From a bacterium (GTDB taxonomy: Bacteria > Patescibacteriota > Microgenomatia > Levybacterales > UBA12049): 64,000 nt of DNA. Location: contig JAJYDJ010000001.1 of assembly GCA_021777565.1 (NCBI GenBank), positions 24,431 through 88,430 of the forward strand, in the 5' to 3' direction. How positions within the stretch are numbered: position 1 is the first letter of the stretch; every line of letters starts with the position of its first letter. The notes under the pieces were generated by a model. It searched no databases and had not been told where the DNA came from. It was given only the letters and a program-made list of their open reading frames with translations. The position numbers were made by a program, and so were the translations under genes. Below, piece by piece: positions 713 to 5,144 of the stretch.

Positions 713-2011
713 ATGGCTTACTCCTTTGGAAAGGGAGCTATGCAACATAAACGATTTATTCTCGAAAATGGTCTGAGGGTTATTGCTGTGCCTATGCCAG
801 GCATCGCCAGTGTGACGGTGATGGTCTTGGTGGGTGCTGGTAGCCGCTATGAAAAACGATCAACCAGTGGTATTTCTCACTTCCTTGAACACATGGCCTT
901 CAAAGGCACAGAAAAGCGCCCTAGTGCTCTTGGAATGGCAAGCCTGATAGAAGGAGTGGGTGGGGATTTTAATGCCTTTACAGGCAAAGAAGTGACAGGA
1001 TTTCACATCAAAGCTCAGAACACCCAGCTGGAGCTGTGCATGGACGTGCTTTCAGACATTCTGCAAAACTCACTTTTTGACCCAATTGAGATCAAGAAAG
1101 AGGTTGGGGTGGTCATAGAGGAGATCAACATGTATGAGGACAGTCCTATGCAGAACTTGGGTATTGTCTATGAACGGCTTCTGTATGGAGACACGCCACT
1201 TGGCTGGGACACCGGGGGATTTAAAGATGTCCTGAAAAAAGTGAACCGTGAGGATTTCTTGAAATACCTGAAGACGTATTATTCCAGTGACAATATGACG
1301 GTTGTGGTGGCTGGTGGGGTAACCCCAGAGCACGTAAAGAAAGTAGCTGATACCTATTTTGGTAGTTTGAAACAGTTTGATACACCAAAACTACAGTTGG
1401 TGTCAGAAAAACAGGACAGTCCTCGGGTTTTTATTAAAAGACAAAAGACTGAGCAGGTGCATCTGAGTATTGGATTTAGAACTGTGGGCCTTGGGCATCC
1501 TGACCAATATGCTCTGGACGTGTTGGCGACCATTATGGGTGGCGGAATGAGTAGTAGGCTATTTGGTGAAGTACGTGAAAAACACGGACTGGGCTACTAT
1601 GTGCGTACGACCAGTGATAATTATCTGGATTGTGGCACGATCGTAACGAGTGCCGGGGTAGATAAAAAGAAAGCCTACCAGGCAGTAGAAATTCTCCTTA
1701 AGGAGATTAAAAAGATCGCGATGGAGGGTGTGACTGCCGAGGAGCTGCAAAATGCCAAAGAAATGATGAACGGACACTTTGTACTGGAACTTGAGGATAG
1801 TCATGATGTGGCATCATTCTATGCACATGAAGAAATACTTGAGAAAGAACTCCTGACACCGGAGGATGTTATCGAGAAAACCAATGCCGTGACGCTAGAA
1901 CAGGTCAATGCAGCCGCCGCAAAATATCTGATCAAAGAGACACTTAATCTTGCTATCATTGGCAATTTTGCCAGTAGTGAAACATTTGAAGAGATGGCAA
2001 AGGCATACTAG
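713..2011 (+). CDS. M16-family zinc peptidase (insulinase-like)
   Basis: 432-aa ORF carrying the inverted zinc motif HFLEHMAFKGT (HxxEH) near the N-terminus. Length is typical of the family. Confidence 0.75.
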   Translation: MAYSFGKGAMQHKRFILENGLRVIAVPMPGIASVTVMVLVGAGSRYEKRSTSGISHFLEHMAFKGTEKRPSALGMASLIEGVGGDFNAFTGKEVTGFHIKAQNTQLELCMDVLSDILQNSLFDPIEIKKEVGVVIEEINMYEDSPMQNLGIVYERLLYGDTPLGWDTGGFKDVLKKVNREDFLKYLKTYYSSDNMTVVVAGGVTPEHVKKVADTYFGSLKQFDTPKLQLVSEKQDSPRVFIKRQKTEQVHLSIGFRTVGLGHPDQYALDVLATIMGGGMSSRLFGEVREKHGLGYYVRTTSDNYLDCGTIVTSAGVDKKKAYQAVEILLKEIKKIAMEGVTAEELQNAKEMMNGHFVLELEDSHDVASFYAHEEILEKELLTPEDVIEKTNAVTLEQVNAAAAKYLIKETLNLAIIGNFASSETFEEMAKAY

Positions 2012-2057
2012 TGATCTTCTTCTGGACAACAAGAACTAACTTCGATATACTTATCTT

Positions 2058-2528
2058 ATGCAAACAAGTCGTTGTGTAGTACTGGTAAAACCAGACGGCG
2101 TCCAAAGAGGACTGATTGGTGAAATTATTCACCGCTTCGAAAGAAAAGGACTTCACATGATCGGGCTGAAGATGATCGCCCTTGATGATGAAACACTGAG
2201 TGATTGGTATGTTGAGCACAAAGATAAGCCATTTTTTGGTGATTTGAAGAAATTCATGTCATCCAATCCAGTCGTTGCCATCCTTTGGGAAGGCATTGAA
2301 GCATCAGTCGCGATCCGCAACATTCTTGGTTCTACCAAAGGACGTGAAGCAGCACCTGGTACCATCCGTGGTGATTTCTCTATGAGTAAACAGTACAACA
2401 TCGTGCATGCATCAGACAGTGCAGAAGCAGGAGACCGTGAACAGAAATTGATCTTCAAAGATGATGAGATCTTCCCATGGAAGAAAATGAACCTTGATCA
2501 AATCTACGCTCCAGACGAAATGGAATAA
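2058..2528 (+). CDS. ndk: Nucleoside diphosphate kinase
   Basis: 156 aa. VLVKPDGVQRGLIGEIIHRFERKGL and NIVHASDS (active-site His) are canonical NDK motifs. Confidence 0.85.
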   Translation: MQTSRCVVLVKPDGVQRGLIGEIIHRFERKGLHMIGLKMIALDDETLSDWYVEHKDKPFFGDLKKFMSSNPVVAILWEGIEASVAIRNILGSTKGREAAPGTIRGDFSMSKQYNIVHASDSAEAGDREQKLIFKDDEIFPWKKMNLDQIYAPDEME

Positions 2529-2578
2529 GTCCTTTCCTCTTTATCTTTTCTCCCGATTGTTCTAAAATACATGTATAT

Positions 2579-2617
2579 TCCGCGATAGTCCGCCAGCTGG
2601 CGGACAGGAAGCTGTTA
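2579..2617 (+). pseudogene. Orphan 5' half of a tRNA-Asn-like gene (acceptor 5' strand, D-arm, anticodon stem-loop through position 37), then broken
   Basis: tccgcgatag...caggaagctgtta is identical to the 5' acceptor strand and anticodon stem/loop (GTT) of the intact tRNA-Asn at 2869. It has a different but self-complementary D-arm (gtcc/ggac). Identity ends exactly after anticodon-loop position 37, 2 nt before the ATG of the GIY-YIG ORF. Confidence 0.55.
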
Positions 2618-2619
2618 TT

Positions 2620-2868
2620 ATGTGGTATGTATATGCCATTTATAACAAAGAGAATAGTCAAATATATATTGGTCAAACATCGAATATTGATCGGCGGTTA
2701 AGTGAACATAATAGAAAGATTGGTAATCACTTTACTGCTAAATACAATGGAGATTGGAACCTAATATATGCGGAAGAGTGTTACTCAAGGCGAGATGCAC
2801 TTAAAAGAGAAAAAGAATTAAAAAGTTATCAGGGGAGAATGTTTATAAAAACATATATTCCCAAATGA
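2620..2868 (+). CDS. GIY-YIG nuclease superfamily protein (YhbQ/UPF0213-like, 82 aa)
   Basis: MWYVYAIYNKENSQIYIGQTSNIDRRLSEHN gives the GIY...YIG core with a conserved Arg and Glu. Size and pattern resemble E. coli YhbQ. The stop codon abuts the tRNA-Asn 5' end. Confidence 0.7.
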   Translation: MWYVYAIYNKENSQIYIGQTSNIDRRLSEHNRKIGNHFTAKYNGDWNLIYAEECYSRRDALKREKELKSYQGRMFIKTYIPK

Positions 2869-2943
2869 TCCGCGATAGCTCAACGGCAGAGCAGGAAGCT
2901 GTTAACTTCAAGGTTCCAGGTTCGAATCCTGGTCGCGGAGCCA
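2869..2943 (+). tRNA. tRNA-Asn (anticodon GTT), with encoded CCA
   Basis: Manual fold gives a 7-bp acceptor tccgcga/tcgcgga. D-stem is gctc/gagc. Anticodon loop is ctGTTaa with U33 and A37. T-arm is ccagg-ttcgaat-cctgg. Discriminator G is followed by CCA. Confidence 0.8.
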
Positions 2944-4389
2944 GAGTTGACGATCATTGCAATTGATGATCTCGTCAAAGGGTTTTAGCGCGTCATATCG
3001 GACTGTTCTACCTTCTAGTGTAAGGTTCGATAGTACGAACTTGAGTAACTGCCTTTTTTCTTCAACTTCTGAACTCATAAATAGATCGTATGCACGATTA
3101 GCTATATCCAGTATGTATTTCGTGGTGATAAAGTAGTTATCTTCTGCATCACTCAGAAGTGCCAAGCGTGACCCAATTTCTACCTTTTTATCACTCAGGT
3201 CTTGGAAGAATTTGTCATATTGATCCTCAGTAATACGCCCTTTTAGTCTATCCAAATACAGATTGTCCATCATTGTACTCGTTTCTTGTTGTTCTTTGGT
3301 CAGTTTCTTATATTGCTCATTGTGCAAGTCCATTTTTCCTTGGTGAACGCTATTAAGATTGTCTACAACCTGCCGTACTACATGTTCTGGTAGTTGTAGT
3401 CTCTTGAAGACATTTTCGAACTGCTCAGTAATAGAGGCCTCTGTAAGCCATTCTGCGCTATGTTTTCCGTTATATTGAGTACAATGATAGTAAACAATAC
3501 CTTTGTGCTTTTCTGGAGTCACTGCAAGCCCACATGTAGCGCATTTAATAAGGCCACGATAGGCATATGGTTTGCCAGCAAACTTATGCGGTATCTTATT
3601 GTATCCTGCCTTGATTCGTTGGACTTGGTCAAAAAGTTCTTGTGTAATAATCGGTTGGTATTTGTGATGATAGTATTTCCCATTCCACTTCATCATACCG
3701 TAATAAAATGTATCCTTGAGGATCTTATCTATAAATCCTTGTGACCACTTGATGCCATAATCACGATCAAGTTTCTCTCGTAAAGTCATCATGGAATATG
3801 CACCTGTGGCATAGAGCTCATATGCTTGTTTAACAATCTTTGATTGGAAGTCTTCAATCACAATCTCAGTTTTATCTTTTGCTATGGGAACTCTTTTATA
3901 GCCGTAAGATGGTCTGCTCGGATATGTACCCATTCTGAGCATTTGCTCTTGAGCTCGTTTTACATTGTCGCTGATAGCATCGGAGTAATATTTAGCGAGG
4001 CCTAGACTGATACTGAAGTTGAATTTCTCTACAGCTGATAACTGGCTATTGATTACTTGTCCGTCGGAAACAAAATGTAGTTCAATTTCATCCTTGAGTG
4101 CTTTGTCGTATAATAGTGAAACACGTTTATCAAAGACATTACGTGATAGTCTATCTACCTTATCAAAACACACTGCCACTTTCTCTTTTTGTTCAATCAC
4201 GTAATCGAGTATGTTATCAAAGTCACTACGCTGTGTTTTGTATGCACTTTCATCAAAACTGAATTCTTTGAGCATCTCAAATTCCTTATTTTGACCATAC
4301 TTTTTCATCCTAGCCATTTGAGCAGGAAGCGAGTTGTTGGCTTCTTTTTGTTCTTCTGTTGATACTCGTGCAATATATATGCTTTTCAT
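2908..4389 (-). CDS. Large serine recombinase (integrase). The 3' end overlaps tRNA-Asn antisense
   Basis: N-terminal resolvase motif YIARVSTEEQ carries the catalytic Ser. 493 aa with a Cys-rich zinc ribbon CATCG...YYHC and a coiled-coil region. The C-terminal tail is the antisense translation of the tRNA T-arm and acceptor. Confidence 0.8.
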   Translation of the reverse strand: MKSIYIARVSTEEQKEANNSLPAQMARMKKYGQNKEFEMLKEFSFDESAYKTQRSDFDNILDYVIEQKEKVAVCFDKVDRLSRNVFDKRVSLLYDKALKDEIELHFVSDGQVINSQLSAVEKFNFSISLGLAKYYSDAISDNVKRAQEQMLRMGTYPSRPSYGYKRVPIAKDKTEIVIEDFQSKIVKQAYELYATGAYSMMTLREKLDRDYGIKWSQGFIDKILKDTFYYGMMKWNGKYYHHKYQPIITQELFDQVQRIKAGYNKIPHKFAGKPYAYRGLIKCATCGLAVTPEKHKGIVYYHCTQYNGKHSAEWLTEASITEQFENVFKRLQLPEHVVRQVVDNLNSVHQGKMDLHNEQYKKLTKEQQETSTMMDNLYLDRLKGRITEDQYDKFFQDLSDKKVEIGSRLALLSDAEDNYFITTKYILDIANRAYDLFMSSEVEEKRQLLKFVLSNLTLEGRTVRYDALKPFDEIINCNDRQLWLRDQDSNLEP

Positions 4390-4466: not shown

Positions 4467-5144
4467 TTACTGAGTAAGGTGTTGGATAGCGTAATCTGCC
4501 TCTGCTTGCGTAAACTTTTCACCAGCATTAGATGTTAATTGGTCATGAATAGCTGATGGTGACATACTCATAGTATCTTGATAAGTCTTTGCTTTAGCTA
4601 GGGCGTTTGCATTCCAATCTGCTTTTACATTATCTACTGCATATTGTGCAGCGTCTGCCGAGAACTTTTCGCCATAGTCTGAGACTAACTGGTCATATAC
4701 GCCTCTTTTAGACATGTGCATGGTGTTAGCGTAAGTAGTAGCTTTGTTTAAAGCGGATGTATATTCCGCTGGCACACTTGGTTGTTTGTTTGCACTTGTT
4801 GCTGTTGGACTACTATTATTAGTTTTATCCTGTTGGACTTGTTGGCTATTTGTGTCAGGTGAGCTCATGGTAGGAGTACCTGAAGCACCAGCCATAGTAC
4901 CACCAATACCTAACAAGACAAAAAAGACTATTATCTTTAATACTCTTGATAGCTCAAAATTAGTCTTTGTTTTTAGGAACTTCACCGCTGGAGGGAAAAT
5001 AACCAAGCCTGCAAGAAGAGTAAATATACCCGTCGCTGGCTTACCAAATAGTTCACTAAGACCACCTATAACTAGTATCCCTCCTAAGCCCCAACCGAGA
5101 ATAAGTCCAAGCCCTATTTTATTTGTTTTCTTATCTGTTTCCAT
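4467..5144 (-). CDS. Ltp-family (phage superinfection-exclusion-like) membrane-anchored protein with two Ltp repeats
   Basis: N-terminal transmembrane helices and a Ser/Thr/Gln-rich linker. Two tandem repeats, ...VYDQLVSDYGEKFSADAAQYAVDNV... and ...IHDQLTSNAGEKFTQAEADYAIQHL..., match the Ltp repeat pattern QL..EGFS..EA.YAV. Confidence 0.5.
   Translation of the reverse strand: METDKKTNKIGLGLILGWGLGGILVIGGLSELFGKPATGIFTLLAGLVIFPPAVKFLKTKTNFELSRVLKIIVFFVLLGIGGTMAGASGTPTMSSPDTNSQQVQQDKTNNSSPTATSANKQPSVPAEYTSALNKATTYANTMHMSKRGVYDQLVSDYGEKFSADAAQYAVDNVKADWNANALAKAKTYQDTMSMSPSAIHDQLTSNAGEKFTQAEADYAIQHLTQ

Follow-up and report, generated by a model that had tools for sequence, protein, structure and literature searches.

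Free-standing GIY-YIG nuclease genes that spread through tRNA genes are known from phages. SegB of phages T4 and T6, a protein of about 220 amino acids with a DNA-binding part, is encoded by such a gene, located in a tRNA cluster and not in an intron. It cuts inside tRNA genes, spreads by break repair and drives the tandem amplification of segB plus tRNA units (PMC2330249; PMC13096335). The locus described here lies at positions 2579–2943 of a 64,000-nucleotide stretch of a Patescibacteria (Candidate Phyla Radiation, CPR) genome, hereafter the window, and consists of a 5' remnant of tRNA-Asn with a palindrome inside it, a short GIY-YIG nuclease open reading frame (ORF) and an intact tRNA-Asn gene. 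Like segB, this ORF is a free-standing, tRNA-associated GIY-YIG gene in neither an intron nor an intein, as is typical of free-standing homing genes, and arrays at related CPR loci resemble the tandem nuclease-tRNA units of SegB. Unlike the phage protein, it belongs to cellular genomes and codes for a bare catalytic domain of the UPF0213/Slx1 type of 82 amino acids; moreover, the cassette occupies a single tRNA gene, part of which is duplicated, and shows an overlap between stop codon and tRNA and a conserved palindrome. We estimate at roughly 0.55 the probability that the interval represents one copy of a small selfish cassette of the free-standing homing type, which would reside in the tRNA-Asn of Patescibacteria and duplicate the 5' part of this tRNA.

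The mitochondrial DNA of the fungus Allomyces offers another parallel. Its atp6-ORF360, reportedly described by Paquin in 1994, is said to be a mobile endonuclease ORF carrying a replacement gene end. In both cases an endonuclease gene enters an essential gene and brings a replacement piece, the displaced piece being left as a fragment, and the GC-rich hairpins of Allomyces nest, as does the palindrome of our locus. The Allomyces case concerns an organelle, a protein-coding gene and a displaced 3' end, whereas a bacterial chromosome, a tRNA and its 5' end are involved here; the Allomyces hairpins are dispersed, whereas the palindrome, with its single copy in 64 kb, is bound to one locus. Mobile double-hairpin elements are also reported from this mitochondrial DNA, as far as a later paper relates them (Paquin 2000, cited in PMC3787672).

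In the window, the intact tRNA-Asn(GTT) gene, with encoded CCA, occupies 2869–2943 on the forward strand (ARAGORN; Rfam RF00005, 64.6 bits). Two blocks collinear with it stand 290 nucleotides (nt) upstream on the same strand: F1 (2579–2588), TCCGCGATAG, an exact copy of tRNA nt 1–10 (2869–2878), and F2 (2605–2617), CAGGAAGCTGTTA, an exact copy of nt 24–36 (2892–2904; standard positions 25–37), which comprises the 5' side of the anticodon stem plus the loop as far as A37. Neither sequence has any further exact match in the 64-kb window and, by arithmetic, the joint chance of their order and spacing would be about 1e-7. In place of the 13-nt D-arm between them (tRNA nt 11–23) lies a perfect 16-nt palindrome, TCCGCCAGCTGGCGGA (2589–2604), which can form a stem of 6–7 bp (7 bp with its flanking G and C) with a 4-nt loop and shows neither G18G19 nor other D-arm features. 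The preliminary description had taken the 39 nt at 2579–2617 for a 5' tRNA half whose D-arm carried compensatory substitutions: its outer blocks are indeed exact copies of the tRNA, and the supposed D-arm is the palindrome. It had also proposed a covariance-model search as a test that could overturn the tRNA half; the Rfam tRNA model finds no match in these 39 nt even at E<=10, formally an outcome against it, and we judge this test too strict for a half-tRNA devoid of a D-arm.

As first described, the nuclease ORF (2620–2868, forward strand, 82 amino acids) starts 2 nt past F2 and its TGA stop codon abuts nt 1 of the complete tRNA-Asn, an arrangement confirmed by PF01541, ARAGORN and Rfam. It fills 249 of the 251 nt between F2 and the tRNA, and the insert of 290 nt codes for this ORF alone, with no integrase. 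The motif AGGAAG, formerly part of the anticodon stem and now in F2, lies 9 nt 5' of the ATG and may be the ribosome-binding site of the ORF. A −10-like box, TAAAAT (2563–2568, forward strand), read from the sequence 10 nt 5' of the remnant, is probably the native tRNA-Asn promoter, now serving remnant, ORF and tRNA; a simple scan for promoters and terminators found no promoter 5' of the remnant and no terminator at the palindrome. Contigs from several independent samples carry this identical locus, which rules out an assembly artefact.

The arrangement is recurrent. A scan of one genome per species yielded 298 relatives, of which the best 80 were examined. The order tRNA 5' remnant, palindrome, remnant, GIY-YIG ORF and intact tRNA is found across Patescibacteria loci, and a tRNA gene lies at or near the end of the ORF in 80 of 80 related loci. 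ARAGORN identified tRNA-Asn(GTT) directly at this end in 66 of them and tRNA-Lys in one; the other 13 have the start of a tRNA-Asn there, interrupted by an insertion (nine) or truncated where the contig ends or a run of N begins (four). The earlier suspicion that small GIY-YIG genes beside tRNAs form a recurrent mobile association is thus borne out, with several tRNA types involved. Many contigs stop within or just past the tRNA, as expected for a polymorphic hotspot.

Despite acceptor stems that differ between species, the first 8 nt of the remnant equal those of the resident tRNA in 65 of 76 loci, and the piece equivalent to F2 is usually of the resident type as well. The 3' edge of the remnant ranges from about nt 25 to nt 38, and the conserved break lies in the D-arm. 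The loss of identity after position 37, first noticed in the window, is therefore real there and variable elsewhere, and this position is not the defining insertion point; true introns lie between U35 and U36. A few junction classes exist: tRNA 1–13, palindrome, 17 onward (the majority); 1–10, palindrome, 24–35 (the class of the window); 1–8, palindrome, 12 onward; and 1–21, palindrome, 25 onward. The class tracks the nuclease tree: the 1–10, palindrome, 24 junction is shared by the whole protein cluster of the window (17 members), in tRNA-Asn genes with at least five different acceptor and anticodon stems.

In 55 of 79 loci the ORF terminates within the tRNA, 49 of the 79 having a TAG stop codon at tRNA nt 8–10 and six reading 21 nt into the tRNA; the window, with its stop codon outside, is atypical. 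Here the ORF ends (2851–2868) with TAT ATT CCC AAA TGA followed by tRNA-Asn; in close relatives it ends with TAT ATT CCG CGA TAG, overlapping tRNA nt 1–10, so that a 7-nt insertion, CAAATGA, uncoupled stop codon and tRNA in the window. In the minimum free energy fold of the putative precursor (2570–2946), the remnant UUCCGCGAU pairs with the 3' acceptor strand of the tRNA instead of the tRNA's own 5' strand; according to this thermodynamic prediction, the remnant could compete with tRNA folding or free the last codons of the ORF. A TAnnnT box occurs exactly 6 nt 5' of the GIY-YIG start, shortly before position 2501, in 16 of 69 loci (among them L012, L015, L019, L026, L033, L064, L066 and L080), any other spacing being found in at most 4 of the 69; the box, absent from the window, could represent the promoter of a leaderless mRNA derived from the former anticodon loop (CTGT+ATAAT). 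Many third-party bins with the locus (L005, L007, L008, L010 and others) bear titles such as "uncultured Gammaproteobacteria" or "Pseudomonadales", which are probably unreliable because their gene content and tRNAs look like those of Patescibacteria.

Allowing up to 2 mismatches, the palindrome lies 6–62 nt 5' of the start codon of the GIY-YIG gene in 79 of 81 loci, always within the 5' fragment of the resident tRNA, and is degenerate or nested in the other two. It has a single copy in the 64 kb (<=2 mismatches) and in about 600 kb of other loci is nearly restricted to occupied tRNA sites. Its arms, TCCGCC and GGCGGA, are essentially invariant, with no compensatory changes, and its central 4 nt vary (AGCT, GGCT, AGCC, AACT, AATT and others). 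Nested palindromes occur at L025, L050, L053, L068 and L070 and tandem ones at L027, L040 and L044, L048 differing from L040 by a deletion between two palindromes. The palindrome cuts the 35-nt direct repeat into pieces of 8–13 and 12–19 nt; we propose that, since recombination to its right would yield a dead tRNA, it should stabilize the insert. Because the arms are invariant and a second nuclease subfamily has another hairpin at the same place, we also argue that the palindrome would be a specific partner of its nuclease subfamily. That it is also the binding site of the nuclease is a prediction and the weakest step in this reasoning.

Palindromes paired with a specific enzyme gene recall the repetitive extragenic palindromic (REP) sequences and their REP-associated tyrosine transposases (RAYTs). 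REPs come in hundreds of scattered copies, and RAYTs belong to the HUH enzymes, whereas the palindrome described here is confined to the tRNA locus; the many dispersed copies per genome that mark REP/RAYT systems or miniature inverted-repeat transposable elements were not found. Its arms (TCC...GGA) look like the tRNA-Asn acceptor stem. A rule by which AGC is swapped for the palindrome was considered; it fits nt 9–11, 14–16 and 22–24 and the palindrome centre, fails for the junction type of the window, L068 and L054, and is kept here as a pattern only. The palindrome was also detected in 55 viral stretches, many of which are GC-rich, the matches there being probably due to chance; none has a related GIY-YIG gene nearby, and the idea of a phage link was dropped. 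In some phage contigs of about 40–53% GC the exact 16-nt palindrome appears several times per contig over longer inverted repeats, and it adjoins a common CCCCCTACTTTAGTAG motif (viral loci L278, L281, L282, L286, L288, L296, L316, L322; L271, L297, L300).

The protein comprises a single domain, GIY-YIG (PF01541, score 67.9 bits with a cutoff of 22.6, E=1e-18). Residues Y5, Y16, R26, H30 and E64 are invariant in 40 aligned homologues, in a spacing that presumably corresponds to Y6/Y17/R27/H31 of I-TevI. Foldseek placed the AlphaFold model (predicted local distance difference test, pLDDT, 94) nearest to the UPF0213 proteins BH0048 and EF2693 and to the Slx1 nuclease domain (template modelling score, TM, 0.72; root-mean-square deviation 2.2 Å), with I-TevI and UvrC further off. 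A profile of the 40 homologues matches the UPF0213 structures 1ywl and 1zg2 at E=1e-6 to 1e-5, and identity to UPF0213/YhbQ and Slx1 proteins is just 22–30%. These proteins provide the best sequence and fold matches; to our knowledge, none of them has been described as the product of a mobile gene linked to tRNA. The first, second and third codon positions differ pairwise by 0.35, 0.26 and 0.54, the pattern of a protein that evolves under purifying selection, and the ORF is intact in all 81 loci. Judging from the invariant catalytic residues, this selection and the confidently modelled fold, the nuclease is apparently active. Among 5.8 billion proteins searched, 105 relatives were retrieved, and those few that bear a source name are labelled Patescibacteria/CPR (e.g., Gottesmanbacteria, Kuenenbacteria), and a profile search of 1.84 billion cluster representatives returned 1,482 clusters at E<=1e-10. 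Viral contigs yielded only distant GIY-YIG relatives (35–63% identity over partial matches) and no close homologue, and NCBIfam, PADLOC and PHROGs only sub-threshold motif matches to homing endonucleases.

Scanning metagenomes with the 25-nt anticodon arm of the window tRNA recovers tRNA-Asn genes with or without the cassette. Among 104 loci testable by virtue of sufficient upstream sequence, 94 have neither GIY-YIG gene nor palindrome near the tRNA, five carry the full module (L107, L140, L160, L169, L182) and five have other GIY-YIG arrangements, the sporadic presence characteristic of free-standing homing genes. At least 13 empty loci share the acceptor stem TCCGCGA of the window, which relative to an empty site has gained about 290 nt. 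Empty sites display a TGnTAAAAT box 10–16 nt 5' of tRNA nt 1, often after GCTGGATTT, and occupied sites have the same motifs upstream of the remnant. Occupied L013 and empty L198 are syntenic, with a common upstream gene (71–82% nucleotide identity) and promoter, and the leader of L014 matches that of empty L180. Given these shared leaders, promoters and upstream gene, the remnant is the host tRNA's own 5' end in its native place. The original proposal of a GIY-YIG cassette that split the tRNA-Asn and brought a replacement is supported, the replacement being that of the 5' part.

Other loci carry traces of movement. As regards co-conversion, the remnant is of the resident type in most loci and foreign in L006, L011 and L024, where its anticodon stem comes from another tRNA-Asn lineage than that of the resident (in L024 the acceptor differs too). 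At 11 loci (L007, L011, L012, L014, L018, L022, L052, L059, L061, L080, L084) there are a second decayed unit between ORF and tRNA, tandem ORFs or solo units devoid of ORF. The same palindrome and a related nuclease are present in tRNA-Lys genes (L054, L333–335), with a palindrome-bearing partial tRNA on both sides of the insert; the ORF stop is the TAG at tRNA nt 8–10 in L333, and in L054 the ORF ends about 12 nt 5' of the tRNA. Syntenic empty sites, tandem arrays, foreign remnants and the switch to tRNA-Lys together argue for mobility. Horizontal transfer in particular is indicated by the foreign remnants, by a junction type that goes with the nuclease clade in five or more host tRNAs and by the tRNA-Lys loci with their identical palindrome.

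A related but distinct set of loci extends these observations. The ORF of L121, about 30% identical to the window protein, retrieved as a query another CPR subfamily with the same layout and a different hairpin insert. In L324 the order is promoter, tRNA-Asn nt 1–19, a 57-nt double hairpin, tRNA nt 18–26, ATG, ORF and, 5 nt further on, tRNA-Asn; the double hairpin follows nt 8 in L329–331 and L121 and lies within a 5' fragment of tRNA-Ile in L326. Its stems vary with compensating changes (GGTGCTGAT/ATCAGCACC versus GGTTTTGAC/GTCAAAACC) and its flanks, CGAsTCGG and CTAGA, are kept. Distant members show mirror-image loci (L097, L336), in which tRNA and ORF are followed by a displaced 3' tRNA fragment, and in L332 (781–2264) and L337 (755–1883) GIY-YIG genes of the second subfamily stand between smpB and the gene for transfer-messenger RNA (tmRNA). 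L332 has two GIY-YIG copies flanking smpB. Across the family, the tRNA-like partners are mostly tRNA-Asn, with tRNA-Lys, tRNA-Ile, tRNA-Ser and tmRNA in relatives. In L101, L123 and L129 (~600–1000, in tRNA-forward orientation), a 5' fragment (nt 1–53) of one tRNA-Asn type precedes by 40 nt an intact tRNA-Asn of another type, behind which stands a GIY-YIG gene (42% identity to that of the window); this seems to be a variant in which the cassette brings a whole foreign tRNA.

From the second subfamily and the mirror-image and tmRNA loci it follows that the combination of small GIY-YIG gene, tRNA-like gene, partial duplication and hairpin is recurrent in CPR. Tentatively, and with the odds against it in our opinion, the minimal GIY-YIG nucleases of CPR could represent a new class of prokaryotic mobile elements, each subfamily with its own cognate hairpin (the 16-nt palindrome or the double hairpin) as a putative recognition or processing site steering insertion into the D-arm region of tRNA or tmRNA; the mechanism would then be hairpin-guided and structure-specific instead of classical homing by protein alone, with tRNA repair via duplication.

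How might a selfish cassette of the homing type enter and persist in such a gene? The nuclease would break a cassette-free tRNA-Asn between D-arm and anticodon arm, and the break would be repaired from a cassette-bearing copy, the left end pairing with the 5' remnant and the right end with the intact tRNA, so that palindrome, remnant, nuclease gene and a fresh tRNA 5' part would be copied in. Since a fresh 5' part of the essential tRNA forms the end of the cassette, this tRNA would survive. The ORF would use the tRNA promoter, with the remnant as its 5' untranslated region, and repeated cutting and repair would generate tandem arrays, as experiments have shown for phage SegB, the nearest precedent. 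At loci whose stop codon falls within the tRNA, processing by RNase P would cut it off, which would keep the nuclease at a low level.

Several observations weigh against this scenario. The protein, a single domain of 82 amino acids, is a bare catalytic domain without the separate DNA-binding domain of I-TevI or the Seg enzymes, so that the element misses one usual feature of homing genes. A regenerated tRNA should keep the target, leaving self-cleavage unaccounted for, and a purely passive role of the palindrome as spacer does not account for its invariant arms. In most cluster-1 loci the remnant right of the palindrome matches the resident tRNA and the junction type is inherited with the nuclease, a combination not expected from simple gap repair of a single break. 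The cassette is present on all contigs of the window's species: an empty allele within this species, sought via the exact NDK protein of the window, was not found. Finally, the strong conservation of the ORF would fit a domesticated gene as well.

Recombination at or beside the palindrome would be another route of entry, one that we think unlikely: a circle of about 0.3 kb or a tandem unit would integrate Campbell-style, the junctions keeping partial tRNAs, and the nuclease would cut a hairpin or cruciform. The tRNA-Lys loci L333 and L054, where a palindrome stands at either side of the insert along with tRNA pieces that overlap, speak for this route, as do the nested or tandem palindromes (L025, L027, L050, L053, L068, L070), the covariation of hairpin type with nuclease subfamily and the fact that the closest solved fold beyond UPF0213, that of Slx1, is a structure-specific nuclease. 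Nevertheless, most tRNA-Asn loci have the palindrome on one side only, a downstream copy occurring in 4 of 58, and we know of no GIY-YIG enzyme that rejoins DNA; no circle junction was observed either, although the tools used could not have revealed one. Ends-in recombination of an excised linear unit was also considered and rejected, as it would erase the palindrome.

It is less probable still that the locus is a domesticated operon, mostly vertically inherited, in which the protein and the leader formed by remnant and palindrome would regulate or protect tRNA-Asn expression, for instance where integrases and introns constantly attack the locus. The intact ORF under purifying selection in 81 of 81 loci and the fixation of the cassette in all contigs of the window's species would suit such a function; the overlap of stop codon and tRNA would couple translation to tRNA processing, and serine-integrase elements and group I introns do target the same tRNA gene. 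Yet about 90% of the tRNA-Asn genes of this type, syntenic loci included, lack the cassette; tandem, decayed and foreign-type remnants exist, switches to other tRNAs have occurred, and models of defence systems gave nothing past weak motif matches.

Group I introns occur in the same gene and at roughly the same site. The tRNA-Asn is split between U35 and U36 in nine loci (L019, L023, L040, L041, L044, L048, L055, L056, L077; ~2760–3080 in each), where it is the downstream tRNA that contains the intron; RF00028 was called in five of them (L019, L041, L055, L056, L077), and in the six complete ones the tRNA continues with a 3' exon that starts TAA.... These introns lack an ORF, and the GIY-YIG cassette stands just upstream as a separate element. 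In the second subfamily, L329 and L331 carry a group I intron and the otherwise identical L330 does not. Collaborative homing pairs free-standing endonucleases with adjacent ORF-less introns, and such a relationship between the GIY-YIG gene and the downstream introns is possible. It is a different matter whether the window locus is itself a decayed group I intron with a homing endonuclease, made of 5' exon, ORF, ribozyme remains and 3' exon, as the preliminary description had envisaged among its options. The nine intron-bearing relatives, the many remnants that end at CTGT and weak matches to intron endonuclease models could be cited in favour. However, Rfam at E<=10 over 2000–3500 detected the tRNA only, neither a group I intron nor a known leader RNA; the ORF takes up 249 of the 251 nt, and no ribozyme core was found between the tRNA pieces; the flanks do not join into one functional tRNA, since the downstream tRNA is complete and not a 3' exon and the upstream piece has no D-arm; and intron-bearing loci have the cassette in addition. 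The tRNA is kept by duplication and not by splicing, and this possibility, very improbable, can be considered largely refuted.

On the other side of the tRNA, a large serine recombinase ORF of 493 amino acids (2908–4389, reverse strand), followed by an Ltp-type lipoprotein gene (4467–5144, reverse strand), runs into the tRNA-Asn gene, its last ~12 codons being the reverse complement of tRNA nt 40–75. In about 17 metagenome loci, homologous recombinases terminate at this very position of the tRNA, and homologues lie beside the tRNA in 16 of the 55 genome loci with enough downstream sequence; they seem to represent one family of integrative elements, in which the integrase gene extends into the 3' half of tRNA-Asn. 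No second copy of this 3' half (<=3 mismatches), which would mark the far end of the element, was found in the window. Integrative elements duplicate parts of tRNA genes, and those using tRNAs as attachment (att) sites, prophages included, resemble our locus in having a partial tRNA copy on one side and an intact tRNA on the other, tRNA-Asn being a hotspot here too. The least probable of all explanations is an att-site duplication left by this neighbouring recombinase element or another integrative element, with the ORF as unrelated cargo: a recombinase ORF does reach into the 3' half of the tRNA in the window and in many relatives, yet it is the 5' and not the 3' part that is duplicated, on the opposite side from the recombinase; the 290-nt insert has no integrase, the remnant holds a palindrome, 39 of the 55 loci have no recombinase, and the 80 loci keep palindrome and ORF together as one conserved unit.

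The element appears to work like a free-standing homing endonuclease gene and is neither an intron nor an integrase att scar; nor is it a split tRNA of the Nanoarchaeum type, since an intact tRNA-Asn lies 290 nt downstream of the 5' half. We found no published description of a module combining GIY-YIG gene, palindrome and tRNA-Asn in CPR; a 2024 survey of rRNA insertions in these bacteria notes only sparse GIY-YIG ORFs in non-intron insertions (PMC11270868).

If this interpretation is correct, the cassette would be the smallest self-contained nuclease cassette known in an essential single-copy tRNA gene without an intron, one that would avoid lethality by duplicating the 5' part of the tRNA and fusing its stop codon to the tRNA. 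It would also provide a candidate biological role for a branch of the uncharacterized UPF0213/YhbQ-like proteins, and the pairing of nuclease subfamily and hairpin would offer a testable hypothesis for how a bare GIY-YIG domain of 82 amino acids finds its target. The contig breaks and odd "half tRNAs" seen at tRNA-Asn in CPR bins would be accounted for. More generally, the tRNA-Asn gene of these tiny CPR genomes is contested by three kinds of elements: GIY-YIG cassettes, group I introns and serine-integrase elements.

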